Assembly (NCBI RefSeq): GCF_024502345.1
Contig: NZ_JALDNN010000001.1
From: Escherichia coli
Lineage (GTDB): Bacteria > Pseudomonadota > Gammaproteobacteria > Enterobacterales > Enterobacteriaceae
Length of the DNA: 64,000 bases
Direction: 5' to 3' (one strand)
The notes under the pieces are model-generated. The model searched no databases. It saw only the letters and a list, made by a program, of their open reading frames with translations, and was not told the DNA's origin. Positions 7,205 through 35,506 of the stretch are shown in pieces (position 1 is the first letter of the stretch; the number at the start of each line of letters is the position of its first letter). Position numbers and translations under genes: made by a program.

Positions 7205-7276
7205 TGGGAAACATCAGAATAATCAAAGCAATAAGCAGTGTCGTTAAACCACCTCCGGGTGGTTTTTTTGTGCCTG
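7149..7276 (+). repeat. attL: direct repeat covering the 3' 56 nt of tRNA-Leu plus terminator
   Basis: About 128 bp, roughly 95% identical to 34590-34719. Confidence 0.85.
7246..7269 (+). terminator. Rho-independent terminator after leuZ
   Basis: Hairpin accacctccgggtggt followed by T7. Confidence 0.7.
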
Positions 7277-7445
7277 AAATTCATGTCCTGTGCATATCCT
7301 GTGCTCACGGGGTGCGATGAGCTGCAATCTCCAGCCTGGCAATGACGAATCGAACGTGTCGCCTCCAGCATAGAGAACCAGGCCGCTTTGCCTGTTTTCC
7401 GGTACGCTTCCGGGAAGGGGGGCCTGCTGAGCAAGCTGTAATGCT

Positions 7446-8186: not shown

Positions 8187-8266
8187 TCTTCAATCCTGCC
8201 CCGTAATAAAAACACCTTCAGATATATATTATCTCCATGATATCAATCAGATACATGAGGATAAAT

Positions 8267-12711: not shown

Positions 12712-12772
12712 GGTAACTCCATTTTTTAGCTTACAAAAATAGCACTCAATGAAAATTATATTATCCGTGTCA

Positions 12773-13675
12773 TTACGGGGCGTTACTTGGCTGGGTGTAA
12801 CGTTTCAGTGCGGATTGTATATCTTCAGCAAGTTGTTGACGGATTGAGGCCGGTTGTATTACTTCGACATCCGGTATCCAGTATTTCATTAAAGGCATTA
12901 TCTGATCTGTGTGTGTTACACGTGATATCACCAGTAAATCGCCAGACCGGGAAGTATGAATTATTTCCTGTCCTGGCAATAGATGACGGTGGGTAAACCA
13001 CGGAGCAACATGTGCGGAAACTGAAATAAGAACTTCGATAAGGTCTTCGCTATACCAGATACCATCTGTCTTTTCTATTTTTTCATTAATTTCGGGGATT
13101 ATCCTGAAAGAGATATTACTCATGCAAACGTCTTTGACAGATGAGATAACAAAGCTTTTTAATGTACTGTCATGGGCGGCAGCGAGATACCACAATCCGT
13201 TGTCATTAACCAGCCTGTATGGCTCAACAGCCCGAAACTCTTTATCTTTGTAATTAAAATTTACTTTCTTCTGTGACAGGATGGCATCGGATAATACATT
13301 CAGAATTGACATGAATGATCCGCAGTTTTCGTATGGACGTTGTTTTATCAGAAACGGGTTGTTTTTCGTGTTACCTAACAAAATACTCAGTAGTCTGTCA
13401 TCCCAGCGAGGGAACAGCCCTTCAATACCCAGGATGCGCGTGAAATGACGTAAATCAGCATTGCTGCGTTGACCGAGAACACCGTCAGACAGGCGATAGC
13501 GACCATTTTGTCGAATCAGATTAAGATAGGACAGGCGCTGAGTAAGATCACGACGGATAGTTTTTTCGCAAACGTTAAATTCCTCAGATAACTCCCGGAC
13601 GGCTAGTGACTCACCATTGTTCAGGCGAGTTAATATCAATCCGAGTCGATATCCAAGTTTATCGTGCTTACCCAT
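12773..13675 (-). CDS. HTH + WYL-domain-type transcriptional regulator (YafY-like)
   Basis: 300 aa; N-terminal DeoR-like HTH ([21 protein letters not shown]), central region consistent with a WYL domain. Confidence 0.5.
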
Positions 13676-13724
13676 TCGTTTATCCGGTTAATGCCAGCGA
13701 AGAGGATATTTTCAGCAAAGTAAC

Positions 13725-17030: not shown

Positions 17031-17076
17031 AGTTAACTCCGAAAAAATGCCGGGAGCTGTGTCCCGGCATAAAGAA

Positions 17077-17715
17077 TCAGGATTTAATAACATTTACTAC
17101 AGATTTGAAAATATCGGTTTTGTGTGATTCATCATCTACATGGATAAAGGAAACGAGTTTCCTGCCTGCTTTAATCAGGATACCGCGTTGCGTCTTTTCC
17201 ACAGACGGGGTAACGTGTGCAGATAACAGACAATGTTCATGTAAATGAAGAAACTTTTTTGAGGCGTAGCCGCCATGTAATCGGGCTTGAATGTCAAGAT
17301 ACATATCATCAAGAGAACCGGGTTCTCCTGATTCACTCAATACCGGATAACCCTTCTTATCAAAGAGGTTAAGGATAGATTTACTATCATGTTCGAACAG
17401 GGTAACACCGTAAATGTATTTCATTCGAAAGGTGAGGGAATCGGTGGTGTAGACCTCCTCCTGACGATTGAAATTTTTGAGACGCCTGGCTAATTCATTA
17501 AAAACAGCACGAGCAGTAGCCGTGTCCTGCAGGGTGTAGGTATAAAGTACGAAGCCATCTGTGCCGATGAGCTTTACTAAGTTGTCCATAATCGTGATAG
17601 CGAGAACTAATGCAAAGGACAGATATTTTTCATCGTTGTCTACAGCTGTGTTTGCTGCTTCAGGAAGAATGTTCAGTGCATTATTAGCATTATTTGCTGT
17701 GTTCTTAGTAACCAT
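17077..17715 (-). CDS. Hypothetical protein between the excisionase and PolB genes
   Basis: 212-aa ORF overlapping the xis stop by 11 nt; no recognisable motif. Confidence 0.5.
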   Translation of the reverse strand: MVTKNTANNANNALNILPEAANTAVDNDEKYLSFALVLAITIMDNLVKLIGTDGFVLYTYTLQDTATARAVFNELARRLKNFNRQEEVYTTDSLTFRMKYIYGVTLFEHDSKSILNLFDKKGYPVLSESGEPGSLDDMYLDIQARLHGGYASKKFLHLHEHCLLSAHVTPSVEKTQRGILIKAGRKLVSFIHVDDESHKTDIFKSVVNVIKS

Positions 17716-18055: not shown

Positions 18056-19186
18056 TCATTTTTTCGTGTCATAACTTTCTATGACCTGAGAAACCACTGC
18101 GTGCGATGTCGCTGCATTGTGAAAAGCGTAGCGACGGGTCGCCGTGAGTGAATGGTGATTTAGCAGATGGGAAGCGATTGCAATATCCCCGGTCGCCTGT
18201 AGTACCCGGGTGGCAAAGGTACGGCGCAGGTCATGCATCCGCAGGTTATCAATGTTGGCATCCCGACAAATACGGGCAAAGGTTGCACGCGGATATGCCA
18301 GAGGGCGGGCATTGTCGGTTAGTTGTGGAAAAATGTAAGTTTTGCTGAGCATCAGGTCTTGCTGGCACTGGACAACTGCAATGGCTGGAGGTGCAAGTGG
18401 GCAGGTGAAAGGGTGTCCGGACTTTGTATCAGGCAGTATGAGTTGATGCATATCCGGGTGCCAGTACTCCCATTTCAGGGTACATACCTCACCAATACGC
18501 ATCCCCGTATAAAGAGCAAGCAATATAGAATCAGCTGCCGGTGTTTGCAGCGCTGTTGCCGCGTCAATAAAGCGCGGGATTTCTGTCGCTGATAGTGTGC
18601 GATAGCGAATGTTATTTTCTTTCAGATAGCGGACATGTGACATCGGGGAATGTGTGATCCATCCAGCACGTACTGCCAGAGAGCATATTTTGGACAATAT
18701 TGCGAGGATACGGTTTACTGTTGACGGACGTAATTTTTCCCGTAAGCCAGCAGCATATTGTTCTAGTTCCCCTGCCGTGATGTCGCGAAGTTGCCGCTTG
18801 CCCCAGAACGGGCGAACGTAGAGGTTGAGTTTTGACAACTCTGACTGAGGACTCTTTTTATACAACTGCAAATCCGGTAGCCACAGGTCATTGATGGCCT
18901 GTTCCACAGTGAATCGACGGGACTGAACCGCAAGACGATTTTTATCAGCAAGCAGTTTCATCACATGCTGACGGGCATCCTCAACGCAGAGCTGAGGGAA
19001 CTGACCCAGGGTTTCATATATACGCTGATTGTTTATAGTGGCACGAAAGGCCAGCGTGATCCGATTGGGATACACCAGAGCACGCAGGTTTTGGCAGTGA
19101 ATATCACGGTATTCCTGACAACCCGTGAGGGGATGTGGAAGTTGGTGAAGTGATTTGTTGCTGAAACGCAGATCCAGAATAGGCAT
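18056..19186 (-). CDS. Second tyrosine recombinase (XerC/D-like integrase)
   Basis: 376 aa; RIGEV (R), HDLRRTFAT (HxxR), TRRYAFH (Y). Confidence 0.8.
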   Translation of the reverse strand: MPILDLRFSNKSLHQLPHPLTGCQEYRDIHCQNLRALVYPNRITLAFRATINNQRIYETLGQFPQLCVEDARQHVMKLLADKNRLAVQSRRFTVEQAINDLWLPDLQLYKKSPQSELSKLNLYVRPFWGKRQLRDITAGELEQYAAGLREKLRPSTVNRILAILSKICSLAVRAGWITHSPMSHVRYLKENNIRYRTLSATEIPRFIDAATALQTPAADSILLALYTGMRIGEVCTLKWEYWHPDMHQLILPDTKSGHPFTCPLAPPAIAVVQCQQDLMLSKTYIFPQLTDNARPLAYPRATFARICRDANIDNLRMHDLRRTFATRVLQATGDIAIASHLLNHHSLTATRRYAFHNAATSHAVVSQVIESYDTKK

Positions 19187-19329: not shown

Positions 19330-20460
19330 CTACAGTTTCATGATCTTGTTCGCTATTTTTTCGAAGTAAACCTCATTCTTAAGAAGAGTGATATTGTTTG
19401 TTTGAACACCCAGACCACTGGAGGTTGACTGGAAGTTGAGTGAACCACTTATCACTGTGGACTTTCCTGATAAAAATGAAATCAACTCCTTGGAAGATGG
19501 TGCCCACTCAGGGTTTAAGAGTAATGCAATATAGATATATGTCTTACGAAGCAATTGTTCTATATCTTTTTTATGCCCTGTAGTGTTTTGCTTACCTTTA
19601 ATGCAAATAGATTTGATTATGAACTCATCAGGGCTGGTTAAAGGCGTTTTAAACTCACTCAGTGATCCATCGTTATGAATGACTTCATAAGGCAGCATAG
19701 ATAAAATGATCAATGCAATCATTTTAGGATGATAAAGGTAGTTATCACGAATGATTTTTCCTGCCTTCATTGTATTGAGCGTTGTTTGAATAAATACAAA
19801 AAGATATTCAGAGCAAAAGTAACAAAACACAAGCCAGGATAGGTCAATGGATGGAATGTTAATATCCTTAGGTAGTTTGTTTAGCCAGTATTCAGACTTC
19901 AAAAAGGTCCTGATTTCAACAGTATATTCATGCATTTTTGCGCTGAAATCAAGCATTGCTACTTGACCTGATTGTTCCGTAACTGTGTGGTCTATAAATG
20001 TTAGTGTATTGCACATTTTATCCAGCGTGTTTTGAAAACAAGAAAGGAGTTCGGCATTATTATTACCATTAACCGCAGATGAAAGTTCAGTTTTAATAAA
20101 TGCATCCAGTAGCATACAGATTTCTTTCGGAATGACATTTTTACGGGATTGCTGTGAATAGAAATGTACTGCCAGTAAATTAAAGGCAGTGCACTCCTTT
20201 TTTAACCATTGTTCGAGCACTGGGACGTGCTGAAAAAAATTGATATGCTTAGCAGTAGATGCTGATGGAGATAGTACATGAAGAATATCTACAGCAGGCT
20301 TCATTTGCAATATTTGATCGGATTCGGTAGTCGTCATTAGTTCCAGTAATTGCTGTTCAGAAAATAGTTTAGACAGGTGATCAATGTCTTTTTGGTATTG
20401 ATTAAGTTTTGTTAAATTCCCCGGTATACGGGTTACATTGTTTTTCATTTTCTCGAACAT
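19330..20460 (-). CDS. Hypothetical protein, AT-rich, no recognisable domain
   Basis: 376-aa ORF in a low-GC block; Lys/Asn/Ile-rich. Confidence 0.5.
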   Translation of the reverse strand: MFEKMKNNVTRIPGNLTKLNQYQKDIDHLSKLFSEQQLLELMTTTESDQILQMKPAVDILHVLSPSASTAKHINFFQHVPVLEQWLKKECTAFNLLAVHFYSQQSRKNVIPKEICMLLDAFIKTELSSAVNGNNNAELLSCFQNTLDKMCNTLTFIDHTVTEQSGQVAMLDFSAKMHEYTVEIRTFLKSEYWLNKLPKDINIPSIDLSWLVFCYFCSEYLFVFIQTTLNTMKAGKIIRDNYLYHPKMIALIILSMLPYEVIHNDGSLSEFKTPLTSPDEFIIKSICIKGKQNTTGHKKDIEQLLRKTYIYIALLLNPEWAPSSKELISFLSGKSTVISGSLNFQSTSSGLGVQTNNITLLKNEVYFEKIANKIMKL

Positions 20461-20966: not shown

Positions 20967-22202
20967 TTAAAAGGAAATAAATAATGCCTTCCGCCGATGA
21001 ATCAGTGTACTGATTTCTCGAAAATCAGCCTCAATACTACCAACATCACCAAAGACTTCACCACTAATCTCTCTTCGATTTTTCATGAAATTGGTGCTTA
21101 ATAAGCTTTCTTTTTTTAGTGTCACTAATTTTGGTTTTATATCGTTATAGAAATGCTTACGGCTTACCCTGATGCTATGAATCGAGTAGTAAACTGTTTT
21201 ATACATCAAAAATATAAGTAACTGGCCGAGAAGATATTCTTTTTCAATGTATTTATATTGAGAGGATTTTTCGCGTTTCGCCAGGTAGAAAACATGAGGT
21301 GCGATGATGGTGGGGATGAAATCCAGTGCTGGAGAGGTTTTGGTTTTTTCTGTTTCTCTTCCGGATTGAAGATGTTGAAGTACAGAGTATACAATGCTTA
21401 AAATTATGGCGTTACTTATATTATTAATTGCAGTTGGGTAAATATGCAGATTGCTTATCAATTCTGAAAGGCAAAGTAAAACACCAGTGATGTTGGGTTT
21501 TCTGCCGGAGATTGTGGTGCTGTTGAAAATGTGACGATTCTTACGACTTATATTGACAAGTTTATGAGTGCAGAACTCTATATGTTCGACGATTTTATCT
21601 TGACTATTTTTAATGTATTTTGAAATGTTAGTGATCCGGCCATTCAACGTTAGTTCATCAAGCAATATATCATTTTTAATATTGCGAATTTCATCGCAAT
21701 GTTCACATTGAGAAACTATCTCATGTAATACATAACTCGACGTATTGCGGGGTGACGCTGATATGTAATCTAAAATAGAAGGCTCGATTTTGATTTTTTG
21801 TTTGTATTTTTTAATGCACTGTTTGATTGTTTTTTGTAGAGTATTTGAGATGTGTTTTTTATATTCTTTTAGAAAATCTTGCTCTAAAAAGAGTGAGGAG
21901 AAGATCAACTGCTGGCGAGATAATTTAATCTCAGGCTTGATCAATTTAATCCGAAAAACTCTTCCCTCCAACTCATAGCTGAACATGGAAGATAAGTCAT
22001 AGTGGGGTGATAAATGTTCGAGTAACGACATTCGTGTATTCATTAGCCGCTTGAATTTATGGTCAGCATACATAAGTGTTTTTTTTATTTGCTCATCATA
22101 AAGTGGGCCGATAGCGCAGTTGGCAATACTCATTCTATCCGGAGACCTCCAGTCAGCAGGGGAATCACATTGACGGTCATCATTACTATCAAAGGGCATC
22201 AA
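20967..22202 (-). CDS. Hypothetical protein, AT-rich, no recognisable domain
   Basis: 411-aa ORF in a low-GC block; no Walker or nuclease motifs seen. Confidence 0.5.
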   Translation of the reverse strand: MMPFDSNDDRQCDSPADWRSPDRMSIANCAIGPLYDEQIKKTLMYADHKFKRLMNTRMSLLEHLSPHYDLSSMFSYELEGRVFRIKLIKPEIKLSRQQLIFSSLFLEQDFLKEYKKHISNTLQKTIKQCIKKYKQKIKIEPSILDYISASPRNTSSYVLHEIVSQCEHCDEIRNIKNDILLDELTLNGRITNISKYIKNSQDKIVEHIEFCTHKLVNISRKNRHIFNSTTISGRKPNITGVLLCLSELISNLHIYPTAINNISNAIILSIVYSVLQHLQSGRETEKTKTSPALDFIPTIIAPHVFYLAKREKSSQYKYIEKEYLLGQLLIFLMYKTVYYSIHSIRVSRKHFYNDIKPKLVTLKKESLLSTNFMKNRREISGEVFGDVGSIEADFREISTLIHRRKALFISF

Positions 22203-22505: not shown

Positions 22506-24029
22506 ATGAACGACAAAATCAGTCAGGACACGATCAACAAAGCCCTGTGGGCCGCGTGTGATACGTTCCGTGGCACCATCAGTGCTGATACCTATAAAGA
22601 CTTTATCCTTACCATGCTATTCCTTAAGTACATTTCGGATGTCTGGCAGGATCACTACGACGAATATAAAGTGCAATATGGTGATGAGCCGGAACTGATT
22701 GAAGCGATGATGGCGAACGAGCGCTTCGTGTTGCCGAAAAGCGCCAGTTTCTATGCGTTGTACGAGCGACGTCATGAGCCGGGCAACGGTGAGCGTATCG
22801 ATCAGGCGCTGCATGCGATTGAAGAAGCCAACGGCACCAAACTGAAAGATGCCGGGAAAAGTGTCTTCCAGGATATTTCGTTTAACACTGACCGTCTGGG
22901 CGAAGAAAAACAGAAGAACACCATCCTGCGTCAGTTGCTGGAAGACTTTGCCGGTGAAGATCTTAACCTGAAGCCAAGCCGTGTCGGTACGCTGGACGTT
23001 ATCGGTAATGCTTACGAATATCTGATCAAAAACTTTGCTGCCAGCGGTGGGCAGAAAGCCGGGGAATTCTATACCCCACCGGAAGTTTCGGATCTCATCG
23101 CTGAACTGCTTGATCCTCAACCCGGTGATACAATCTGCGACCCGGCCTGTGGTTCCGGTTCGTTGCTAATGAAGTGCGGGCGTAAAATTGTCTCAGGACA
23201 TGATAGCCGCAACTATGCGTTGTTCGGTCAGGAAGCGATTGGCTCCACGTGGTCGCTGGCGAAAATGAACATGTTCCTGCACGGCGAAGATAACCACAAA
23301 ATCGAGTGGGGCGATACCATTCGTAACCCGAAGTTGTTGGATAAAAACGGCGACCTGATGCTGTTTGATATCGTGACCGCAAACCCACCGTTCAGCCTGG
23401 ATAAGTGGGGCCATGACGAGGCCGAGAATGATAAGTTTGGGCGTTTCCGTCGCGGTGTACCGCCGAAGACTAAAGGGGATTACGCCTTTATCTCGCATAT
23501 GATCGAAACCCTGAAACCGGGAACGGGTCGTATGGGCGTAGTGGTGCCGCACGGTGTGCTGTTCCGTGGCTCCAGCGAAGGCAAAATTCGTCAGAAGCTG
23601 ATTGATGAAAACCTACTCGATGCGGTGATTGGCCTGCCTGAAAAACTGTTCTACGGTACGGGTATTCCTGCTGCAATTCTGATTTTTAAAAAGCAGAAAG
23701 TGGATGACAAGGTGCTGTTTATCGACGCCAGCCGTGAATTTAAGGCAGGTAAAAACCAGAACCAGCTCAGCGCAGAAAACATCGAGAAAATCGTCAAGAC
23801 CTACCGTGATGGCGATAGCGTCGAGAAATATGCCTACCTTGCCAGCCTGAAGGAGATTCAGGACAACGATTACAACCTCAATATTCCGCGCTATGTCGAT
23901 ACCTTTGAAGAAGAAGAAGATATCGATTTACTTGCCGTTCGTGCTGAGCGGGAGGAATTGAAAGCGGAACTGGCGAAATTGGAAACGCAGATGGCGGGTT
24001 ATCTGGAGGAGCTGGGTTATGGTGCCTAA
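22506..24029 (+). CDS. hsdM: Type I restriction-modification N6-adenine DNA methyltransferase subunit
   Basis: 507 aa; SAM-binding DPACGSGSLL and catalytic NPPF (VTANPPFSL). Confidence 0.9.
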   Translation: MNDKISQDTINKALWAACDTFRGTISADTYKDFILTMLFLKYISDVWQDHYDEYKVQYGDEPELIEAMMANERFVLPKSASFYALYERRHEPGNGERIDQALHAIEEANGTKLKDAGKSVFQDISFNTDRLGEEKQKNTILRQLLEDFAGEDLNLKPSRVGTLDVIGNAYEYLIKNFAASGGQKAGEFYTPPEVSDLIAELLDPQPGDTICDPACGSGSLLMKCGRKIVSGHDSRNYALFGQEAIGSTWSLAKMNMFLHGEDNHKIEWGDTIRNPKLLDKNGDLMLFDIVTANPPFSLDKWGHDEAENDKFGRFRRGVPPKTKGDYAFISHMIETLKPGTGRMGVVVPHGVLFRGSSEGKIRQKLIDENLLDAVIGLPEKLFYGTGIPAAILIFKKQKVDDKVLFIDASREFKAGKNQNQLSAENIEKIVKTYRDGDSVEKYAYLASLKEIQDNDYNLNIPRYVDTFEEEEDIDLLAVRAEREELKAELAKLETQMAGYLEELGYGA

Positions 24030-25266
24030 GGGGTGGAAACGAGTACCGATTAAGGATGTGTGCGAGTCTATAATCGATTGCGTAAATAAAACAGCTCCAG
24101 TTGTTGATTATGAAACTCCCTTTAAGATGATTCGTACCACGAATGTACGTAATGGAAGGGTTAATACTGAAGACGTCAGATATGTGACTGAAGACACTTA
24201 CCTGCAATGGGTTCGACGCGGAAAACCGCAAGTAGGTGATATCATCTTTACACGTGAAGCACCTGTAGGAGAAGCAGGTGTCCTGCAAGATGCTGAAGGT
24301 ATTTTCCTCGGGCAAAGAACGATGATGTATCGAGCTGATACCTGCCTTTCAGATAACTATTTCTTGTTCTACTCGTTATCAAGTCCCTTCTGCCAGAAAC
24401 AAATTGAAGATTTTAGCAATGGCGGTACTGTAGCTCATATGAGAGTTCCAGATTGCGGTGAGATATTGATCAATCTACCGCCTTTCCTCGAACAAAAGAA
24501 AATCGCCCAAATCCTGTCAACCTGGGATAAGGCGATTTCGGTGACGGAAAAGCTTCTCACCAACAGCCAGCAGCAGAAAAAAGCCCTGATGCAGCAATTG
24601 CTTACTGGGAAGAAACGCTTGCTGGATGAGAATGGGACAAGGTTTTCTGAAACTTGGAAATTATATGCCTTATCGAAATTATTTCAGAGAGTTACGACTA
24701 AAAACAATGGAAAAAGCAACAATGTTGTAACCATTTCTGGACAACATGGTTTGATTAAACAGGAAGACTTTTTCAAGAAAACAGTCGCATCAGATACCCT
24801 TGATGGTTATTTCTTATTAAAAAAAGGGCAGTTTGCTTACAATAAAAGTTACTCTAATGGTTATCCGATGGGTGCAATAAAAAGATTAAATCGATATCCA
24901 GAGGGAGTAGTAACAACTCTGTATATATGTTTTGAACTTACTACACCCAAAAAATCATGTGGTGACTATTGGGAGCATTATTTTGAGTCAGGGCTTTTGA
25001 ATAACAGTTTGTCTCAAATTGCTCATGAAGGTGGACGGGCTCATGGCTTGCTAAATGTAAAACCTTCGGACTTCTTTTCATTAAAAGTTGCGGTTCCTGG
25101 CTTTGAAGAGCAACAAAAAATCGCATTAGTTCTGTCCGCTGCCGACACCGAAATCTCCACACTGGAGAAAAAACTCGCCTGCCTGAAAGACGAGAAGAAA
25201 GCCTTGATGCAGCAACTGCTGACCGGGAAACGTCGGGTGAAAGTGGATGAGGCGGTTGCCGTATGA
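24019..25266 (+). CDS. hsdS: Type I restriction-modification specificity subunit
   Basis: 415 aa; two target-recognition halves each followed by the conserved repeat KKALMQQLLTGK(K/R)R; overlaps hsdM stop. Confidence 0.88.
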   Translation: MVPKGWKRVPIKDVCESIIDCVNKTAPVVDYETPFKMIRTTNVRNGRVNTEDVRYVTEDTYLQWVRRGKPQVGDIIFTREAPVGEAGVLQDAEGIFLGQRTMMYRADTCLSDNYFLFYSLSSPFCQKQIEDFSNGGTVAHMRVPDCGEILINLPPFLEQKKIAQILSTWDKAISVTEKLLTNSQQQKKALMQQLLTGKKRLLDENGTRFSETWKLYALSKLFQRVTTKNNGKSNNVVTISGQHGLIKQEDFFKKTVASDTLDGYFLLKKGQFAYNKSYSNGYPMGAIKRLNRYPEGVVTTLYICFELTTPKKSCGDYWEHYFESGLLNNSLSQIAHEGGRAHGLLNVKPSDFFSLKVAVPGFEEQQKIALVLSAADTEISTLEKKLACLKDEKKALMQQLLTGKRRVKVDEAVAV

Positions 25267-25946
25267 AACTGACGAAAAGCGGTCCACTGACTGACCGGGA
25301 AATCGACTGGCTGGAAGAAATATTAATGAAGTATGGAATGGATGATTCTGTACTCTGTTTCTCTGAGCTGGATGGATTGCTGACGGCGATTTTATCAGGT
25401 CCAAATATGGTTTCACCCAATATCTGGCTGAGTGCTATTTGGGGAGGAGGCGATTATCATCCGAAATGGTCATCTGAGAGAGAGATGGAGCGTTTTGTCA
25501 GTCTGTGTTTTCAGCATATGAACGATATCGCTGGTTGCCTTTATGACGCCCCTGAACTGTTTGAGCCGATTTTCAATGAGCGTGAGGTAAAGGGGGAAAA
25601 ATATACCATTGTGGAAGAGTGGTGTTTTGGTTATATGAAAGGAAAGTCACTGGATGACTGGTCTGGTCTTCCCGGTGAGTTACGGCCTTCTCTGGAAGTG
25701 ATCGCTCTTCATGGCGTGGAGAAGAATTTTCCTGTACTTGAGAAAATGACCGGAGAGCAGTTTGAGAAAAGTATTTCCCTTATTCAGCCTGCTGCACTGG
25801 CACTTTATCAGTACTGGTTGTCAGTGAGAATGTCAGAGGCATCATCCCGGCCTGTTCCAGTGAAGGGGGCAGAAAACATGCCCGGGCGAAATGACCCGTG
25901 TCCGTGTGGCAGCGGTAAAAAATTTAAGAAGTGCTGTCTGCATTGA
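25263..25946 (+). CDS. YecA-like (UPF0149) protein with C-terminal SEC-C metal-binding motif, embedded between hsdS and hsdR
   Basis: 227 aa; C-terminus [20 protein letters not shown]; alignable along its length with chromosomal YecA at 34841-35506. Confidence 0.75.
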   Translation: MKLTKSGPLTDREIDWLEEILMKYGMDDSVLCFSELDGLLTAILSGPNMVSPNIWLSAIWGGGDYHPKWSSEREMERFVSLCFQHMNDIAGCLYDAPELFEPIFNEREVKGEKYTIVEEWCFGYMKGKSLDDWSGLPGELRPSLEVIALHGVEKNFPVLEKMTGEQFEKSISLIQPAALALYQYWLSVRMSEASSRPVPVKGAENMPGRNDPCPCGSGKKFKKCCLH

Positions 25947-25995
25947 TGAATCTTCATGTGACCAGTAGCGAGTAGCGCCAGAAAGAAAAGGATTA

Positions 25996-28900
25996 ATGAT
26001 GAACCAGACGTACACGCCAAAATTCCAGGAAGAATACAGCGCCAAAATTCCGGCACTGACGTTACTGACCAGCCTCGGCTGGACGTTTTTATCTCCGAAA
26101 CAGATTATGGATTACCGGGGCTATAAACAGGATGAGGTGGTGCTGCGTCCGGTTCTGCGTGAAGAGCTGTCGAAGCGTTCCTTTATGGCGGGTGGCAAAA
26201 CCTGCCAGTTATCGGAAAAAGCACTGGATAACCTGATATCACAGGTCTGTTCTCCGGCGCTGAATGAAGGGCTGCTCAAAGCCAATGAACGGATGTATAA
26301 CCATCTGCTCTACGGTATCGCCGTCACGGAGTTTGTCGATGGCAAGAAGGTCAACCCCACCATTGCGCTGATCGACTGGGAACATCCGGAAAATAACCAG
26401 TTCCACTTTACTGAAGAATTTACGGTATTGCGGTCAGGTGGTGTTGAAACCCGGAGGCCAGATATTGTCTGCTTTGTTAATGGTATCCCGCTGGCTGTTA
26501 TTGAAGCGAAAAGCCCGGCTGGTCATGGCAAGAAAGGGCCAACCATTGACGAGGGGATATCCCAGAGTATCCGCAACCAGTTCAACGATGAAATCCCGCA
26601 GCTGTTTGTCTACAGCCAGTTATTACTTTCGATTAACGGTCATGACGGGCGCTACGGTACATGCCATACGCCAATGAAATTCTGGGCGGCATGGCGCGAA
26701 GAAGATATTACCGATGCGCAGATGTATGCTCTGCGCAACCATCCTTTATCGACTGAACAAATTCATGCGTTGTTTGATCATCGTCCATCAGCCGATCTCA
26801 ACTGGTACCAACAGTTAATCGCCGCCGGTGAACTGGCTGTCAGTGGACAGGACAAACTGCTCATCAGCCTGCTTTCGCCGGAACGTCTGCTGGAGATGAC
26901 CCGCTTCTTCACTCTGTTTGATAAAAAGACCGGGAAAATTGTCGCCCGCTATCAGCAGGTGTTCGGTATTAAAAGACTGCTGGAGCGCATCAGTACCCGC
27001 AGACCCGATGGGGGCAGGGAAGGTGGTGTTATCTGGCATACCACCGGCTCTGGCAAATCGTACACCATGGTGTTCCTCAGCAAGGCGCTGATTCTTCATG
27101 ACAGCCTGAAGCGGTGTCGTATCGTGGTGGTGACGGACCGTATCGATCTTGAAGAACAGCTCAGCAGTACCTTTGCATCCGGCGGCGAGTTGGCCGGGAA
27201 AAAAGACAAAGCCAATGCAATGGCGACATCCGGGCAGATGCTGGCGAAACAGATTGGCTCCGGTAAAGAACGCATCATTTTCACCCTAATCCAGAAATTT
27301 AATTCAGCGACAAAACTTCCTGAATGCGTCAATACCAGCCCCGATATCATCGTTCTGGTTGATGAAGGACACCGTAGCCAGGGTGGTGAGAACCATGTGC
27401 GAATGAAACTGGCACTGCCGAACGCCGCCTTTGTGGCATTTACTGGTACGCCATTGCTAAAAGAAGATAAGACCACCAATAAATTCGGACCGATTGTCCA
27501 CGCTTATACCATGCAGCGAGCGGTAGAAGATAAAGCCGTTACACCTTTGCTGTATGAAGAACGTATTCCCGACCTTGAGGTTAACGATCGGGCAATAGAT
27601 GCCTGGTTTGATCGTATTACCGATGGGTTAAGCGAAGCGCAAAAAGCCGACCTGAAGCGTAAATATGCCCGTAAAGGTGAGGTTTATAGTGCAGATGATC
27701 GCATCCGTCTGATCGCACTCGATATCGCCACGCACTTCTCGAAGAATATTGATGAGGGACTGAAAGGCCAGCTTGCCTGCGACAGCAAGATTTCCGCCAT
27801 CAAATATAAAAAGTATCTTGATGAAGCCGGGTTGTTTGAGTCAGCTGTAGTTATCAGCCCGCCGGATACCCGGGAAGGGAATACCGAAGTGGATGAAAGC
27901 AAACTGCCGGAAGTGACGAAATGGTGGAAGGATAATGTCGGCACGCAGGATGAGTCTGTGTATACCCGTAATGTCATCAGTCGTTTCGATACCGATGAGA
28001 AGCTCAAATTGCTGATAGTCGTTGATAAACTGCTCACCGGGTTTGATGAGCCGAAGAATACCGTGCTGTATATCGACAAGCCGCTTAAGTCCCACAACCT
28101 TATCCAGGCGATTGCGCGGGTGAACCGACTGCATCCACTAAAAAAGTTCGGTCTGCTGATTGATTATCGCGGTATTCTGGCTGAGCTGGACACGACTATC
28201 GGCAAATATCAGGACCTCGCCTCCCGAACTCAGGGCGGATACGATATCAAAGATATTGACGGGCTGTACAGCGCCATGAGCTCTGAATACAAGCGCCTGC
28301 CGCATCTGTATAACCAGCTGTGGGCCATATTTGCCGGTGTTAAAAACAAAAATGATACTGAGCAGTTACGTGCGGTACTGGTGCCTAAAATGGAAGAACG
28401 TGACGGAGAGATGGTCGATATCCATCAGAAAACCCGTGATGATTTCTTCGAGGCGTTAACGGCCTTTGCCGGATGCCTGAAAGTGGCACTGCAGTCCGCT
28501 ACCTTCTTCACCGACAAGAGCTTTACGGAACAAGACCGAAATCTCTATAAAGAAACCGTAAAACAGATGTCCAGCCTGCGCCAGTGGGCGATGCAGGTAA
28601 GTGGAGAGCAGGTCAATTATGACGACTACGCTGAGCAGGTGAAAAAACTGCTGGATAAGCATGTCACCGGCGTTGAAGTTCGTGAACCGGATGGCGTGTA
28701 TGAAGTCGGTAAAATGGGCAAGAGCGAAAAGCCCGAAGAGTGGGACAACAATAAAACCCGCAATGAAACCGACATCATTAAAACCCGTGTGACAAAGATG
28801 ATTGAGCAGGAATTGCGTGATGACCCGTATGCTCAGGAGGCATTTTCAAAACTCCTGCGTATGGCTATCGAAGAGGCTGAAAAACTGTTTGACCATCCGC

Positions 28901-29283
28901 TGAAACAGTACCTTTTGTTCCGTGAATTTGAAGAACAGGTTGAAGCCCGTAAGCTCAGCGATATCCCGGATGCACTGGCGGTAAACAAGCATGCTCAGGC
29001 GTATTACGGTGTATTTAAAAAAGAGCTACCTGAGGTTTTTGCGGTAAACGACGTTCAGGTGCAGGATAAGTGGACGAAGCTGGCTTTTGAAGTGGACAAC
29101 ATTATCGTCAAAGCGGTGGCAGAAAACTCCCTGAACCCCCAGGACATTGAGAAAGTCGTTAAGACAAGTCTGCTACCACTGCTGTTTACGGCCTGCCGGG
29201 AAATTGGTGCCGGAATGAATCAGGTTAACCGTATTGTTGAAACCATCATCCAGATACTGCGCGTTGGTTTGATGAAATCATGA
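25996..29283 (+). CDS. hsdR: Type I restriction enzyme R subunit (nuclease/helicase)
   Basis: 1095 aa; helicase motif I TTGSGKS, motif II DEGHRSQ, N-terminal nuclease region. Confidence 0.9.
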   Translation: MMNQTYTPKFQEEYSAKIPALTLLTSLGWTFLSPKQIMDYRGYKQDEVVLRPVLREELSKRSFMAGGKTCQLSEKALDNLISQVCSPALNEGLLKANERMYNHLLYGIAVTEFVDGKKVNPTIALIDWEHPENNQFHFTEEFTVLRSGGVETRRPDIVCFVNGIPLAVIEAKSPAGHGKKGPTIDEGISQSIRNQFNDEIPQLFVYSQLLLSINGHDGRYGTCHTPMKFWAAWREEDITDAQMYALRNHPLSTEQIHALFDHRPSADLNWYQQLIAAGELAVSGQDKLLISLLSPERLLEMTRFFTLFDKKTGKIVARYQQVFGIKRLLERISTRRPDGGREGGVIWHTTGSGKSYTMVFLSKALILHDSLKRCRIVVVTDRIDLEEQLSSTFASGGELAGKKDKANAMATSGQMLAKQIGSGKERIIFTLIQKFNSATKLPECVNTSPDIIVLVDEGHRSQGGENHVRMKLALPNAAFVAFTGTPLLKEDKTTNKFGPIVHAYTMQRAVEDKAVTPLLYEERIPDLEVNDRAIDAWFDRITDGLSEAQKADLKRKYARKGEVYSADDRIRLIALDIATHFSKNIDEGLKGQLACDSKISAIKYKKYLDEAGLFESAVVISPPDTREGNTEVDESKLPEVTKWWKDNVGTQDESVYTRNVISRFDTDEKLKLLIVVDKLLTGFDEPKNTVLYIDKPLKSHNLIQAIARVNRLHPLKKFGLLIDYRGILAELDTTIGKYQDLASRTQGGYDIKDIDGLYSAMSSEYKRLPHLYNQLWAIFAGVKNKNDTEQLRAVLVPKMEERDGEMVDIHQKTRDDFFEALTAFAGCLKVALQSATFFTDKSFTEQDRNLYKETVKQMSSLRQWAMQVSGEQVNYDDYAEQVKKLLDKHVTGVEVREPDGVYEVGKMGKSEKPEEWDNNKTRNETDIIKTRVTKMIEQELRDDPYAQEAFSKLLRMAIEEAEKLFDHPLKQYLLFREFEEQVEARKLSDIPDALAVNKHAQAYYGVFKKELPEVFAVNDVQVQDKWTKLAFEVDNIIVKAVAENSLNPQDIEKVVKTSLLPLLFTACREIGAGMNQVNRIVETIIQILRVGLMKS

Positions 29284-30035
29284 GTGAAAAAGAATCGCCA
29301 TCAATGAAAGCGTTACGCATTGTCTATGGTGATGAGGTCATCGTCGTACAGTGTGTTCCGCGTCAGGTCGTAAAGGGCAGGGTGCTCATTAAGGTTTATC
29401 CGGACTGCCGGGTTGTGGCCTCTGTACCGCCTGAAACACCGGAGCACGAGGTATTGTCTGCGCTGAAAAAACGTGGGCGCTGGATATACCAGCAACTGCG
29501 TGATTTCAGGGAGCAACAGATACACATTGTTCCGCGTCAGTATGTCAGCGGAGAAAGCCATTATTATCTCGGTAAGCAATATCAGTTGAAAGTGACAGAA
29601 GACGCTACTGTGCCGCAACGAGTGAAAATGTTGCGTGGACGTCTGGAAGTGACTGTCAGACACAAATCGGCAGAAAAGATTAAAGCCTTGCTGGCTGAAT
29701 GGTATCGGGAACGTGCCAGAGATGTTTTTCAGCGCAGGCTTGATTTACTGATTCCGCAGACCCTTTGGGTCAGTGAGCGTCCTCCGATACGTCTGCGGGC
29801 GATGCAAACGCAATGGGGCAACTGTTCAGCAAAAGGCTGTCTGACCCTGAATCCATGGCTGGTTAAGGCATCTTCAGAATGTATCGATTATGTTTTGCTA
29901 CATGAGTTATGCCATGTGGCTGAGCACAACCACAGCGAGGAGTTTTACCGTCTGATGGGACAGGTTATGCCGGGCTGGGAAAAGGTTAAGAAGCGACTGG
30001 ATGGTATGGCTGGGATGTTGTTGGCAGATATGTAA
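29280..30035 (+). CDS. DUF45/YgjP-like predicted zinc metallohydrolase (M48/WLM-like)
   Basis: 251 aa; HELCHVAEHNHSEEF metal-binding signature; start overlaps hsdR stop. Confidence 0.7.
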   Translation: MSEKESPSMKALRIVYGDEVIVVQCVPRQVVKGRVLIKVYPDCRVVASVPPETPEHEVLSALKKRGRWIYQQLRDFREQQIHIVPRQYVSGESHYYLGKQYQLKVTEDATVPQRVKMLRGRLEVTVRHKSAEKIKALLAEWYRERARDVFQRRLDLLIPQTLWVSERPPIRLRAMQTQWGNCSAKGCLTLNPWLVKASSECIDYVLLHELCHVAEHNHSEEFYRLMGQVMPGWEKVKKRLDGMAGMLLADM

Positions 30036-30093
30036 CTTATCAATATGAGTTCTTAAGAGTTTGGTCAGTCTCGTTAATGCAGGGAGTATAATA

Positions 30094-31932
30094 ATGAGTA
30101 AGTTAGATAATAAAATTGAAGCACGCCATCGTAATTTGTTTGATGTTCTAAATGCGCAAAAATATACCGTTGATTACTTTCAGCGCGAGTATAGCTGGGG
30201 TGAGAAACATATTGAAGAGTTGGTTACAGACTTAACATCTGCGTTTCTCAATGAATACACAGTCGGTGATTCTCGGGAGCAGGGTGAAAACTACAATAAT
30301 TATTACTTAGGACCATTTGTTGTGAGTAGTAAAGATGGAAAGCGGAGTATTATTGATGGTCAGCAACGACTGACTTCATTAACTTTATTTCTAATTTACC
30401 TCCATAATCTTCAGAAAGAACTTAAATATGAAGAGAAAATAGAATCAATGATTTTCTCCGAGCTACGTGGCAGCAAATCATTCAATATAGTAGTTGAAGA
30501 CAGAATTCCTTGCATGGAAGCATTGTTTAATTTTGGTAGCTATAGTTTAGTTGATGGGGATGATGAGTCAACCCATAACATGGTGGAGAGATATCAGAAT
30601 ATCACAGATGCTTTTCCTGATGAGTTAAAAGGTCAGGCTTTTCCTTTTTTTATCGACTGGCTTAAGTATAACGTTATTATGGTTGAGATAGTCGCCTATT
30701 CAGATGAAAACGCATATACCATCTTTGAGACTATGAATGACCGAGGATTGAATCTTACTCCGTCCGAAATGCTTAAAGGTTTTTTACTTTCACGTTTTCA
30801 TCAGGGAGATAAACGCCAAAAGGCAAATGAACTCTGGAAAAAAGCGATGATGGATTTAAAAAGCTATGACAAAGATGAAGACCAACGTTTTTTCCAGTCA
30901 TGGTTGCGTGCTCAATATGCTGATACAATACGCCCGGGTAAAGCTGGTTCAAAAAATGAAGACTTTGAAAAAATAGGTACGCGTTTTCATAGCTGGGTTA
31001 GAGATAATCTTCAGGCGGTGGGATTGGACCCAGATAATGGTGAGACATTCGAACGATTTATACAAAAAAACTTTTTGTTTTATTTGAATGCCTATACACA
31101 AATACTGAATGCTGAGAGAGTATTAACGCACCAACTGGAATATGTATTTTATATCCACCATTGGGGTATTGCACCTACTTTAAGTTTTCCTTTGATGTTG
31201 GCTCCATTAAATGTAGGTGACAGTCCTGAGGCTGTGATAGCCAAAATAAACCTAGTGGCTCGCTATATTGAAACGTTTGTTGTTCGTCGTTCTGTTAATT
31301 TCCGAAAATTCTCTGCCAGTTCTATTCGTTACACAATGTACAGTCTTGTTAAAGAGATTCGTGGTAAAAGTTTTGAAGAATTAAAAGATTTATTATCTAA
31401 GAAGTTATCCGAAATGCCAGATACTTTTGCAGGAATGGAAGAGTTTCGTCTCCATGGTCAAAACTATCGTTTTGTGAAGTTTTTGCTTTCTCGTATAACT
31501 GCGTGGGTTGAGCAACAAGCCGGAATGAGTACAACCTTCATTACATATTATCAGCCAGAACACGGTAAGCCATTTGAAGTCGAGCATATTTGGGCCGATA
31601 AATATGAACGTTACTCTGATGAGTTTGAACAAGAGCACGAATTTAACAATTACAGAAATCGCTTAGGTGATTTGGTTTTATTACCTAGAGGCTCAAACCA
31701 GTCATATGGTGATTTGTGTTACGATCAAAAGCAACCTCATTACATCAAAGAGAATCTCCTGGCTAAATCGTTATGCCCATTGGCATATATGAATAACCCT
31801 AATTTCAATCAGTTGAGAAATGTATTCGGATTGCCTTTCAAACCACATGATTCATTTAAAAAACAAGATGTCGATGAACGACAGTCTTTGTATAAAATAA
31901 TTTGTGAGAATATTTGGGGCCATAATTTATAG
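30094..31932 (+). CDS. DUF262 + DUF1524 protein (GmrSD-family-like, predicted type IV restriction endonuclease)
   Basis: N-terminal IIDGQQRLTSL (DUF262 DGQQR motif), C-terminal FEVEHIWA His-Me finger-like (DUF1524); RBS ggag before ATG 30094. Confidence 0.7.
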   Translation: MSKLDNKIEARHRNLFDVLNAQKYTVDYFQREYSWGEKHIEELVTDLTSAFLNEYTVGDSREQGENYNNYYLGPFVVSSKDGKRSIIDGQQRLTSLTLFLIYLHNLQKELKYEEKIESMIFSELRGSKSFNIVVEDRIPCMEALFNFGSYSLVDGDDESTHNMVERYQNITDAFPDELKGQAFPFFIDWLKYNVIMVEIVAYSDENAYTIFETMNDRGLNLTPSEMLKGFLLSRFHQGDKRQKANELWKKAMMDLKSYDKDEDQRFFQSWLRAQYADTIRPGKAGSKNEDFEKIGTRFHSWVRDNLQAVGLDPDNGETFERFIQKNFLFYLNAYTQILNAERVLTHQLEYVFYIHHWGIAPTLSFPLMLAPLNVGDSPEAVIAKINLVARYIETFVVRRSVNFRKFSASSIRYTMYSLVKEIRGKSFEELKDLLSKKLSEMPDTFAGMEEFRLHGQNYRFVKFLLSRITAWVEQQAGMSTTFITYYQPEHGKPFEVEHIWADKYERYSDEFEQEHEFNNYRNRLGDLVLLPRGSNQSYGDLCYDQKQPHYIKENLLAKSLCPLAYMNNPNFNQLRNVFGLPFKPHDSFKKQDVDERQSLYKIICENIWGHNL

Positions 31933-31990
31933 CAAAGTTGGGGTGTTAATTAATGTGTAATGGCATCATGATTTTTAAAAGGAGGTTGAA

Positions 31991-33118
31991 TTGCGTTCTG
32001 AAACGTTTTTTGTCAAATTTATTGAACAACTGAAAGGTATTTCGGTTGAGGATGATGTTGAATTCAATTTTTTTGAATTGGGTGGTTCCGGATATCTCGA
32101 AAATCCAACTACGGATTTGATGGCTTTGTTTATGGGAGCCCAGAAAATGGTGCCGCCATGGTTGCTCAAAGCATTGCTATGTTGCCTAGATGATTCCCTC
32201 GATGTTGATGAAATTGATTTCACTTCTCTGGAGCTAATGAGAGAGGCCCGAACAGAAGATGGGAAATATATTGATATTCTTATCAGACATGATGAATTCA
32301 TTATAGGTATTGAGCATAAAGTTCTGGCTGATACATATAATCCTTTTCCCAGCTATGTAAGTCTCATTGATAGTTACGGCGGCAACAATCAAAAACTATT
32401 TCGCTGTATATTAAAGCCTGACGGTAACAGCGCTAAAGGCGTAGACGGTTGGCAACTGATCAATTATTCACTGCTGCTGGAAACCGCCATTCGACGTCTG
32501 GGGTTAGAGATGATGAATCAAGAGTTCAGCAAGTGGACTTTTTTTTATCAGGAGTTTTTAAGTCATCTTAAAAAATTGAGTGAGGTTAGTATGGATAAGG
32601 TATCTGATAAAAATGTGGAGTTTGTCACTGAAAATTTCACAGCTTTGATAAAATCGGTTCAATTGCTGGAAATGTACCAAAATGCTATCACCGAGGAAGC
32701 TAAATCGGTTGTCTCAGAGGTATTGCCTGATATTCATATTGCAACAGGTATTAATAACTGGAAGGGTTACTATAAAGCAATTCATCTGATGCCGGGATGC
32801 TGGGGGCAAGGTAAAACAGGAATTACGTTAGTTTATCGCCCTTCAGAGGATGGTCGAGATGAAGCTGAGTTCTATGTATATGGATGGATACATTCAGATG
32901 ATTACCCTGAAGTTAATGCACTAAAAGAAGAAATAAGAGTTGCTTTAAGTGCTGGAGATTTCATTCCAACAGCTAGCCCTGAGGACTATGAAGTATCAAT
33001 TACTGGGAAGGGGAAAGTGCTTGAACTGAGTTTTTGGGGGAATACGAGAAGCAAAAAAGATGCACTGGTTCTTCTTAAGGATATGACTAAGTGGATGGAC
33101 TCAAAAATAAGAACATAA
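31991..33118 (+). CDS. Hypothetical protein with candidate PD-(D/E)xK nuclease motif; TTG start uncertain
   Basis: 375 aa; DILIRHDEFIIGIEHK fits D...ExK; RBS aaaggagg upstream. Confidence 0.4.
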   Translation: MRSETFFVKFIEQLKGISVEDDVEFNFFELGGSGYLENPTTDLMALFMGAQKMVPPWLLKALLCCLDDSLDVDEIDFTSLELMREARTEDGKYIDILIRHDEFIIGIEHKVLADTYNPFPSYVSLIDSYGGNNQKLFRCILKPDGNSAKGVDGWQLINYSLLLETAIRRLGLEMMNQEFSKWTFFYQEFLSHLKKLSEVSMDKVSDKNVEFVTENFTALIKSVQLLEMYQNAITEEAKSVVSEVLPDIHIATGINNWKGYYKAIHLMPGCWGQGKTGITLVYRPSEDGRDEAEFYVYGWIHSDDYPEVNALKEEIRVALSAGDFIPTASPEDYEVSITGKGKVLELSFWGNTRSKKDALVLLKDMTKWMDSKIRT

Positions 33119-33222
33119 AGTAATATGACTGAGTGATGACGATCTTTTTTAAATTGTGGATTATTAGGCTGGTAATTGAAGCGCCGAATAGACAGATATT
33201 AGAATAAAAGGAGAATATTCAA

Positions 33223-34404
33223 ATGATTTATCAGTGTGATACTTGCAGTAGAACGACTTTTGAGGTTAATTGTCCCTGGTGTAGTGGAGTTTCGCCTGTA
33301 AAAACGTCTGCATGGGGTTCAGCATCATCGACCTCACAAGCAATAGATATACAACGTATGACACCATTGAATCCATCGTTTTATCCAGAGTTTCAGTATC
33401 GTTCAAAGGGTGTTCTAAAAGATCTATTTGGGAAAAAGAAAGAGCAAACTCAGCTTAATCAATTGCTTGAAAATGTTCTCGAAAAATACTCCAGTTTAAA
33501 AGATCCATATTTTACTAACTTCATTTACACTTCCAGATTCTCACATAATAATAAATCGGAAGCAGATTACTCAACAGATAATGGTACATACTCCGAATTA
33601 CAACTTTTCCGTGAGGTGTTGGTCAGAAAAGGGTTCAATGAGCTTGAAGAGTTACCTGAGCTATTAGATAAATTACTCCTTACCACGTCATTTAACGCTC
33701 TTTATTATGGTTTCGCTAAGGAAGTTAAACGGCATATTAAATCTACACTTACTGAATCCTTGAAGTCATGGATTGAGGAAGCGGGTACCACTTTTAGGGC
33801 AGATCTTTCATTGTTTCTATTCTATATATGGAGCAATAAAATAGAGTTCTCATCAGTAGAGTTCAATGAAAAAGCGGAGGCTACGCCTGGTGTTCCTTTA
33901 GTTTCATTTGATGAAGTTAAAAAATACTTAGCTGTGTGCGAACATATTTATTTTGATATTCTGGTTGATAGATTAGCTACACGGCTCGAACATTTTAACC
34001 CTAACAAATTCGTCACCATGTATTTAGTTGATGCAATGGACGGTTTCCAGTTTGAAGATTTCCTTGTGGAAGTATTCCAGACTATGGGCTATGACGTCAA
34101 AGAAACCAAGAGAACGCAAGATCAGGGGGCAGATCTCTTCGTCACTCGATTTGGTAAGGATATGGTTATTCAGGCGAAAAATTATTCTGGTTCTGTAGGT
34201 AACTCGGCGGTGCAGCAGGTGATCTCTGCTAAAACATTCTATGGTTGTGATGAGGCGATGGTTGTGACTAATTCCTACTTCACTCGCTCTGCGAAAGAGT
34301 TAGCTGAATCAGCCTTGGTACGTCTGATCGACAGGGATGAACTGCAAAAGTATCTGGATGATTACAATCAGAAGATAATTGAAGATTTCCAGTCAAACTC
34401 GTAA
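33223..34404 (+). CDS. Protein with N-terminal zinc ribbon and C-terminal Mrr-type restriction endonuclease catalytic domain
   Basis: 393 aa; CDTCS...CPWCS; C-terminal FEDFLVEVFQTMGY...GADLFV...IQAKNY...VQQVISA matches the Mrr_cat pattern. Confidence 0.6.
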   Translation: MIYQCDTCSRTTFEVNCPWCSGVSPVKTSAWGSASSTSQAIDIQRMTPLNPSFYPEFQYRSKGVLKDLFGKKKEQTQLNQLLENVLEKYSSLKDPYFTNFIYTSRFSHNNKSEADYSTDNGTYSELQLFREVLVRKGFNELEELPELLDKLLLTTSFNALYYGFAKEVKRHIKSTLTESLKSWIEEAGTTFRADLSLFLFYIWSNKIEFSSVEFNEKAEATPGVPLVSFDEVKKYLAVCEHIYFDILVDRLATRLEHFNPNKFVTMYLVDAMDGFQFEDFLVEVFQTMGYDVKETKRTQDQGADLFVTRFGKDMVIQAKNYSGSVGNSAVQQVISAKTFYGCDEAMVVTNSYFTRSAKELAESALVRLIDRDELQKYLDDYNQKIIEDFQSNS

Positions 34405-34589
34405 CTTTGCAGTCATATAGATATAGCAAAGGACAGGTAGGCCTCCGTGAGAGGGGGACTTACCTGTGCAGATTCTGTGCTCAAAGTTATCCAAGTCTAT
34501 CTATTTACTGCCAATTACAGTAAAATGAGTAAACAATTACAGCAAAGTTTCGCAATGCACTGCTATGTAACTCATTGATCCTGCGTAGA

Positions 34590-34719
34590 ATTTAAAATCC
34601 CTCGGCGTTCGCGCTGTGCGGGTTCAAGTCCCGCTCCGGGTACCATGGGAAAGATAAGAATAAAATCAAAGCAATAAGCAGTGTCGTGAAACCACCTTCG
34701 GGTGGTTTTTTTGTGCCTG
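34590..34719 (+). repeat. attR: displaced 3' half of tRNA-Leu plus terminator (direct repeat of 7149-7276)
   Basis: Contains tRNA 3' 56 nt ending CCA at 34645, with no 5' half upstream; terminator hairpin at 34691-34712. Confidence 0.85.
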
Positions 34720-34840
34720 CAACTTGTCGTTACACCCTCCTTAATTTTTAATCACCGGCAAAGCCACTCAAAAAGTATCTCTGATACGGACCGGCATGTA
34801 AGATAGGTGCTGGCGAGTTGAGATCCACAAGGAAAAACGT

Positions 34841-35506
34841 ATGAAAACGGGACCGTTAAACGAAAGTGAGTTGGAATGGCTGGACGATATTCTGACCAAA
34901 TACAACACTGACCACGCCATCCTTGATGTGGCGGAGCTGGACGGTTTATTGACGGCGGTGTTGAGTTCTCCGCAAGAGATTGAACCGGAACAGTGGCTGG
35001 TTGCCGTGTGGGGTGGGGCTGACTATGTGCCGCGCTGGGCGTCAGAGAAAGAGATGACGCGCTTTATGAACCTGGCTTTTCAACATATGGCCGATACCGC
35101 AGAGCGTCTGAACGAATTCCCGGAGCAGTTTGAGCCGTTATTCGGCTTGCGAGAAGTTGATGGCAGCGAGCTGACGATTGTTGAGGAGTGGTGCTTTGGC
35201 TATATGCGGGGCGTGGCACTTTCTGACTGGTCAACATTGCCCGATTCGTTAAAACCAGCGCTGGAGGCGATTGCGCTGCACGGTACTGAGGAAAACTTCG
35301 AGCGGGTAGAAAAGATGTCGCCAGAAGCGTTTGAAGAGAGCGTAGATGCCATTCGACTGGCGGCGCTTGATCTACATGCGTACTGGATGGCGCATCCGCA
35401 GGAAAAAGCTGTTCAGCAACCGATCAAAGCAGAAGAGAAACCGGGGCGTAACGATCCTTGCCCGTGCGGTAGTGGTAAGAAATTTAAGCAGTGCTGCCTG
35501 CATTAA
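34841..35506 (+). CDS. yecA: UPF0149 family SEC-C motif protein YecA
   Basis: 221 aa; C-terminal [20 protein letters not shown]; conserved position next to leuZ/tyrP. Confidence 0.88.

Follow-up and report, generated by a model that had tools for sequence, protein, structure and literature searches.

Positions 30094-34404 of a 64,000-nucleotide stretch of Escherichia coli DNA (contig NZ_JALDNN010000001.1; hereafter the window) are interpreted, with a probability of about 75%, as the distal end of the defence cargo of an E. coli pipolin, consisting of three independent single-gene nuclease cassettes that follow a type I restriction-modification (R-M) operon and not of a multi-gene system. Gene 1 (30094-31932, + strand, 612 amino acids [aa]) encodes a GmrSD-like protein with DUF262 and DUF1524 domains (PADLOC HEC-06). 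Gene 2 (31991-33118, +, 375 aa, TTG start) encodes a PDDEXK_4 nuclease (PADLOC PDC-S26). Gene 3 (33223-34404, +, 393 aa) encodes a zinc ribbon, a helical domain and an Mrr_cat nuclease. An earlier note made from the sequence had described a candidate defence cluster of three co-directional, AT-rich predicted nuclease genes after the R-M operon. That description was borne out: the open reading frames (ORFs) lie exactly at these coordinates, all on the + strand and directly 3' of the operon, their domain matches are far beyond chance, catalytic residues are conserved in all three, and every quoted motif is present at a definite position (DGQQR, EVEHIW, DILIRHDEFIIGIEHK and the CxxC pairs). The element itself, which the earlier note did not recognise as a pipolin, places the cluster in the known framework of pipolin defence cargo rather than in a new multi-gene system.

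The window represents chromosomal DNA of E. coli. Strain CT02 is 99.9% identical to 30000-34850, and its RefSeq annotation contains the same three genes at identical coordinates, named DUF262 protein, PD-(D/E)XK nuclease family protein, and restriction endonuclease. No NCBIfam match was found for the protein of gene 1, 2 or 3. Each gene is preceded by its own Shine-Dalgarno sequence. The guanine-plus-cytosine (GC) fraction is 0.36-0.39 at 30-34 kb versus 0.49-0.51 in the adjoining upstream R-M genes, and falls sharply from ~0.49 to 0.37 at the junction of gene 1 with the M48 metallopeptidase gene that ends the R-M operon. Intergenic gaps are 58 bp (M48 to gene 1), 58 bp (gene 1 to gene 2) and 104 bp (gene 2 to gene 3).

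The three genes are the last of an island of 27.5 kb (~7149-34723) bounded by ~130-bp direct repeats and inserted at a tRNA-Leu gene between pgsA and yecA. The left repeat, attL (7149-7279, +), comprises the 3' part of tRNA-Leu(UAA) (7118-7204) and a terminator. The right repeat, attR (34590-34723, +), carries a second tRNA-Leu 3' end with its terminator, is ~94% identical to attL, and lies ~190 bp 3' of gene 3, in agreement with the earlier placement of the cluster at the right end of the element. The island is defined as a pipolin by piPolB (14430-17093, -), an 887-aa primer-independent family B DNA polymerase. Because the Pfam match of this polymerase is weak (E = 0.015), its identity was taken from published signature motifs, SVTTDG at residues 592-597 (SxTTDG, a PolC variant) and the KH-x8-KTRG motif KHEVSQLIAMKTRG at 634-647. 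Numbered from the RefSeq start, the polymerase has K613/H614 and D59/E61, which are the positions altered by mutagenesis in earlier work on E. coli piPolB (PMC5695915), and its PHROG match is DNA polymerase (4e-6). Two tyrosine recombinases with integrase matches (8237-9484; 18056-19186), a WYL regulator, and a DUF2787 protein are also encoded. The island was assigned to pipolins because of the piPolB motifs, the tRNA-Leu att repeats, the recombinases, the WYL and DUF2787 genes, and the published pgsA-yecA site.

Mateo-Caceres and Redrejo-Rodriguez (NAR 2024, PMC11551731) describe enterobacterial pipolins as bimodular, with a conserved core near the integration site and exchangeable distal defence cargo, which in Enterobacterales includes type I R-M, PDC-S12, PDC-S26, and HEC-06. 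The insertion site and core genes found here agree with that text. The island resembles known pipolins (Redrejo-Rodriguez 2017; Mateo-Caceres and Redrejo-Rodriguez 2024) in its site, piPolB motifs, recombinases, WYL/DUF2787 core, and distal defence cargo. It differs in its Mrr-type gene, which the available part of the 2024 text does not mention; the 'DMS_other' class was excluded there. The intact tRNA-Leu (7118-7204) and its attR copy (34590-34645) differ at two T-stem pairing positions (GTGGG...CCCAC versus GCGGG...CCCGC). The two differences pair with each other and represent a compensatory change; therefore, the tRNA-Leu now used by the cell has a 3' half supplied by the pipolin.

Diverged homologues of genes 2 and 3 occur independently of each other. 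Homologues of gene 2 with 33-49% identity were found in Pectobacterium, Xenorhabdus, Dickeya, and Burkholderia with no Mrr or GmrSD neighbour; at these four loci, the number on which the solo status rests, no conserved partner was present, and the neighbours were integrases, a SIR2 protein, or NERD and SMODS proteins. Gene 3 was scanned in one genome per species, which yielded 52 loci with a near-full-length homologue. Nine of the 52 have at least 94% identity, all within this cargo, and in the eight of these with upstream sequence, gene 1 or gene 2 stands beside gene 3 and R-M/M48 genes are always present. The diverged loci (~43) have no gene 1 or gene 2 adjoining and no PDDEXK_4 gene within 8 kb. 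A conserved partner ORF was sought in these ~43 loci and not found; the best cluster comprised 5/~43 and is a lineage-specific Pseudomonas neighbour. Solo homologues of gene 3, usually the final gene in a variable island, are present in Klebsiella, Pseudomonas, Paraburkholderia, and Dickeya. Locus L020, a candidate for gene 3 alone within the cargo, was rejected as a truncation artefact since its contig starts inside gene 2.

Natural variants within pipolins delimit the cassettes. The arrangements 1-2-3, 1-3, and x-2-3 were observed, and blastn placed the breakpoints at 30033/30034, 31966/31967, and 33222/33223. The gene 1 cassette (30034-31966) is replaced by an unrelated sequence of ~610 bp in E. 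coli 64EVA and Citrobacter amalonaticus. The gene 2 cassette (31967-33222) is missing in E. coli 0H24, Atlantibacter sp. RC6, and Enterobacter sp. Cy-643, and homology resumes at 33222/33223, exactly at the gene 3 ATG. No repeat or recombination site was identified at the three breakpoints. These precise breakpoints are an observation of the present analysis, and the clean boundaries 30034-31966 and 31967-33222 are ready-made cloning units. Identical breakpoints delimit the cassettes in E. coli, Citrobacter, and Atlantibacter; Enterobacter Cy-643 shows the 1-3 arrangement by tblastn. Proteins of the R-M/nuclease cargo share 94-100% identity among Citrobacter, Klebsiella, Buttiauxella, Atlantibacter, Enterobacter, and Intestinirhabdus, which indicates very recent transfer of this pipolin cargo between genera. 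The cassette variants illustrate the shuffling of this cargo between genera.

Genes 2 and 3 had been suggested either to act together as a two-gene system or to be stand-alone nucleases. A single two-gene defence system spanning 31991-34404, for example of mutually dependent sensor and effector nucleases, would fit genes that are adjacent, co-directional, 104 bp apart, and similar in GC content, and that occur in near-equal numbers (211 and 219) among 5426 complete E. coli genomes, where gene 1 is found in 158 and all three genes are contiguous in 150. It is nevertheless judged very unlikely. The four gene 2 loci at 33-49% identity have no Mrr gene, the ~43 diverged gene 3 loci have neither a nearby PDDEXK_4 gene nor a conserved partner, and PADLOC models PDC-S26 as a single-gene candidate. 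In the 0H24, Atlantibacter, and Enterobacter pipolins, an intact gene 3 directly follows gene 1 and gene 2 is cleanly absent. Co-occurrence and adjacency of genes 2 and 3 are thus not maintained across diverged homologues, and the solo homologues and cassette variants favour the stand-alone alternative.

Another reading is that genes 1-3 are accessory back-up modules of the R-M operon, co-transcribed with it, rather than autonomous cassettes. They share its orientation, gene 1 follows the M48 gene after 58 bp in which no terminator was detected, and in many genera the R-M genes, M48, and gene 1 stand directly next to one another. Payne et al. (bioRxiv 10.1101/2024.01.29.577857) report that GmrSD-like genes often lie within type I R-M loci in the same orientation. 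An accessory role is considered unlikely because the GC content drops sharply (~0.49 to 0.37) at the M48/gene 1 junction, a recurrent recombination breakpoint (30033/30034) falls exactly there, and diverged homologues of genes 2 and 3 have no R-M genes nearby. Least probable, and hardly to be expected, is that the nucleases serve the pipolin itself, in excision, replication, competition with other mobile elements or addiction, and not anti-phage defence. The genes do lie beside attR on a self-replicating element, and the searched literature holds no known phenotype for genes 2 and 3. However, they belong to the variable cargo outside the conserved core, many pipolins do not have one or another of the three, homologues are also carried by non-pipolin islands and by plasmids, and anti-phage nuclease function is proven for the gene 1 family. 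Autonomous defence cassettes remain the preferred interpretation, and the gene products are considered individually below.

Gene 1 encodes an N-terminal DUF262 domain (Pfam GmrSD_N, 4.4e-33, residues 17-231) and a C-terminal DUF1524 domain (GmrSD_C, 1.4e-7, residues 485-558). DGQQR, the nucleoside triphosphate (NTP) hydrolysis motif of DUF262, is at residues 88-92. The His-Me/HNH motif is represented by EVEHIW at 495-500 (E497-H498) and NQSYG at 535-539 (N535). The best PADLOC hidden Markov models (HMMs) are those of HEC-06 (PDLC04157, 1.4e-39; PDLC04154, 2.5e-39; PDLC04155, 1.7e-37), taken without PADLOC's own coverage cut-offs, followed by 'Orf5' and SspE. By HMM profile match, gene 1 is a predicted member of this experimentally validated defence family. 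The earlier reading of gene 1 as a GmrSD-like protein resembling type IV restriction agrees with both domain matches, both motifs, and the HEC-06 profiles.

HEC-06 is a GmrSD-like single-protein defence system (Payne et al., bioRxiv 10.1101/2024.01.29.577857). Mutating its DGQQR or its acidic-His/HNH nuclease motif abolishes defence, and a distant homologue blocks T4 and not the unmodified T4-GT7. Gene 1 shares the DUF262+DUF1524 architecture, DGQQR, and the acidic-His motif (EVEHIW in gene 1, EHICP in HEC-06), and adjoins type I R-M as reported for GmrSD-like genes. The relatives are GmrSD, BrxU, SspE, and DndI. Similarity to solved relatives is low: a PDB sequence search with gene 1 found only DndI (9jfl, 1.8e-9, N-terminal half only), a phosphorothioate-sensing DUF262 protein.

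Gene 2 encodes a PDDEXK_4 domain at residues 25-190 (Pfam, 4e-13) with invariant catalytic residues E37, D95, E108, and K110; the motif DILIRHDEFIIGIEHK spans residues 95-110. A conserved acidic/lysine signature is thereby present on a restriction-endonuclease-like fold, which upholds the candidate PD-(D/E)xK motif proposed for the 375-aa protein. A helical linker and a C-terminal alpha/beta domain (~245-375) follow the nuclease domain. Residues 8-300 align with positions 8-295 of 358 of the PADLOC PDC-S26 profile (PDLC04981, 2e-50). Gene 2 is like PDC-S26 in matching most of the profile length, in behaving as a single gene, and in being found in defence islands. Genes 2 and 3 had been said to correspond to no named system; this does not hold for gene 2, given the PDC-S26 match, and stands for gene 3, whose PADLOC matches cover only the Mrr domain. 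PDC-S26 is named only as a computational candidate family. It is reported to be among the most frequent defence annotations of Enterobacterales pipolins (PMC11551731), and the searched literature on PDC-S26 and PDC-S12 yielded catalogue mentions and no validation. Literature searches on PDDEXK_4/PF14281 and a PDB sequence search with gene 2 returned nothing.

Gene 3 encodes an N-terminal Cys4 zinc ribbon (CDTC at 5-8 and CPWC at 17-20; C5, C8, C17, C20), a disordered linker at 23-41, a family-specific helical domain (~45-260), and a C-terminal Mrr_cat nuclease domain (270-377, Pfam 1e-29) with an intact active site (E278, D304, Q317, K319). The earlier description of a CxxC zinc ribbon fused to an Mrr-type catalytic domain is therefore correct. 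PADLOC matches (ZorD, PDC-S02, mREase_IV) are restricted to the Mrr domain. Assignment to PDC-S02 was rejected since the best match (PDLC04819, 2.7e-16) spans profile positions 185-313 of 334, the Mrr domain only; the mREase_IV model likewise matches only the nuclease domain. Neither the winged-helix N-terminal DNA-binding domain of the E. coli Mrr type nor an SRA domain was detected in gene 3, and in place of these it carries the Cys4 zinc ribbon and the family-only helical domain, unlike E. coli Mrr, MspJI, and AspBHI. A PDB sequence search gave one insignificant match, to an RNA helicase (E = 0.51). The N-terminal module matches nothing known and is confined to its own family (47 representatives in 1.84 billion), which occurs in Enterobacterales, Pseudomonas, Burkholderiales, and scattered other phyla. 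Gene 3 thus represents an unnamed Mrr-type family, and its N-terminal module is the sole unexplained part of the cluster.

By analogy, gene 3 may be a restriction-type enzyme that works alone and is directed at foreign DNA, probably in modified form, a proposal given slightly short of even odds. Ranked next, because Mrr_cat is also a common abortive-infection effector, is a sensor-effector in which the N-terminal module restrains the Mrr nuclease until a phage protein or nucleic-acid cue is met, whereupon host and phage DNA are degraded indiscriminately. Such a suicide nuclease is possible but doubtful: gene 3 lacks the NTPase, repeat or oligomerisation modules that characterise such sensors, and its N-terminal domain is conserved to an unusual degree (~60% identity between Gamma- and Betaproteobacteria), in contrast to phage-protein sensors, which evolve fast. 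Moreover, Mrr_cat proteins of this size that stand alone are classically of type IV. Direct restriction is retained as the first choice for gene 3. A more speculative and rather unlikely extension is that gene 3 represents a widespread, unnamed single-protein defence family, in which the zinc-ribbon/helical module would be a new sensor controlling the Mrr nuclease and recognising a phage protein, a DNA structure or a new modification rather than the methylated bases of classical Mrr, and that gene 2 (PDC-S26) would be a genuine defence nuclease too, one with a novel domain for recognition at its C-terminus.

Klebsiella homologues of gene 3 (79% identity, four loci) are fixed 3' of folD with a variable left flank of nothing, a small island or prophage-like genes. 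The homologue in Pseudomonas hygromyciniae lies behind uvrC-pgsA and a fragment of an integrase gene, which is also the chromosomal setting in E. coli. Adjoining Pseudomonas homologues are a Gabija-like OLD-ATPase/helicase pair and a putative DUF4238 ORF, recognised from ORF translations and in keeping with a defence setting.

Several points weigh against three independent defence cassettes. The HEC-06 HMM matches of gene 1 are broken into 2-3 stretches, the 612-aa protein compares with HMM lengths of ~560, and the comparison was one with profiles. Genes 2 and 3 are nearly always together in E. coli. A scan for promoters and terminators found no convincing terminators between these co-directional genes, and promoter-like matches were at chance level; because of the shared direction, the short gaps and the missing terminators, co-transcription and functional interplay within the pipolin are possible. 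The term type IV restriction is an analogy for gene 3, as its N-terminal domain has no recognisable DNA-binding fold. No experimental phenotype for PDC-S26 or the gene 3 family was found in the searched literature, and a search of phage records yielded no homologue of full length for either gene 2 or gene 3.

Under the cassette interpretation, each nuclease would act on its own. As in its family, the DUF262 domain of gene 1 would bind and hydrolyse NTP through DGQQR, and the DUF1524 His-Me finger would cut phage DNA with modified bases, so that gene 1 would complement the adjoining type I R-M system, which attacks unmodified DNA. Gene 2 would function as a PD-(D/E)xK endonuclease (E37, D95, E108-x-K110), with its C-terminal alpha/beta domain as a putative module for substrate or trigger recognition. 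Gene 3 would function as an Mrr-type endonuclease (E278, D304, Q317-x-K319) directed or gated by its zinc ribbon and helical N-terminal module.

The cluster is already catalogued as pipolin cargo, and its novelty is modest, the content being that of an ordinary defence island. The open question is narrowed to two easily testable single genes, 2 and 3. The former represents a candidate family that is frequent in enterobacterial pipolins but for which no validation was found, and the latter a zinc-ribbon/helical/Mrr family conserved across proteobacterial classes with no name or known specificity.

The type I R-M operon of the same cargo module (22506-30035, +) comprises hsdM (22506-24029, +), hsdS (24019-25266, +), a YecA-like PDC-S12 gene (25263-25946, +; PADLOC PDC-S12, 3.9e-99) embedded between hsdS and hsdR, hsdR (25996-29283, +), and a gene for an M48/SprT-like zinc metallopeptidase (29280-30035, +) that overlaps the hsdR stop by 4 bp (ATGA). 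The M48/SprT-like protein has no PADLOC match, and its gene accompanies hsdR in all genera examined (Citrobacter, Klebsiella, Buttiauxella, Atlantibacter, and Enterobacter). The PDC-S12 gene is 57% identical to the chromosomal yecA (34841-35506, +) just outside attR. A paralogue of the flanking housekeeping gene thus lies inside the R-M operon, at the position of PrrC-like back-up effectors in other type I systems. The stretch from the second integrase gene to the R-M operon contains two long, very AT-rich ORFs of 376 and 411 aa (19330-20460 and 20967-22202, both -; GC 0.34-0.38). PADLOC and PHROG gave no match for either, and Pfam gave only insignificant ones (AbiJ_NTD4, E = 0.03, for the 411-aa ORF); the two ORFs may be further uncharacterised cargo. 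In strain 0H24, a gene for a 620-aa cold-shock-domain protein lies between the YecA-like gene and hsdR (1089-2951 of locus L017). Other pipolins carry additional genes between gene 3 and attR, an MZA system in enterotoxigenic E. coli (ETEC) H10407 (11849-19128 of locus L018) or an anti-phage dCTP deaminase in 64EVA (11937-13706 of locus L019).

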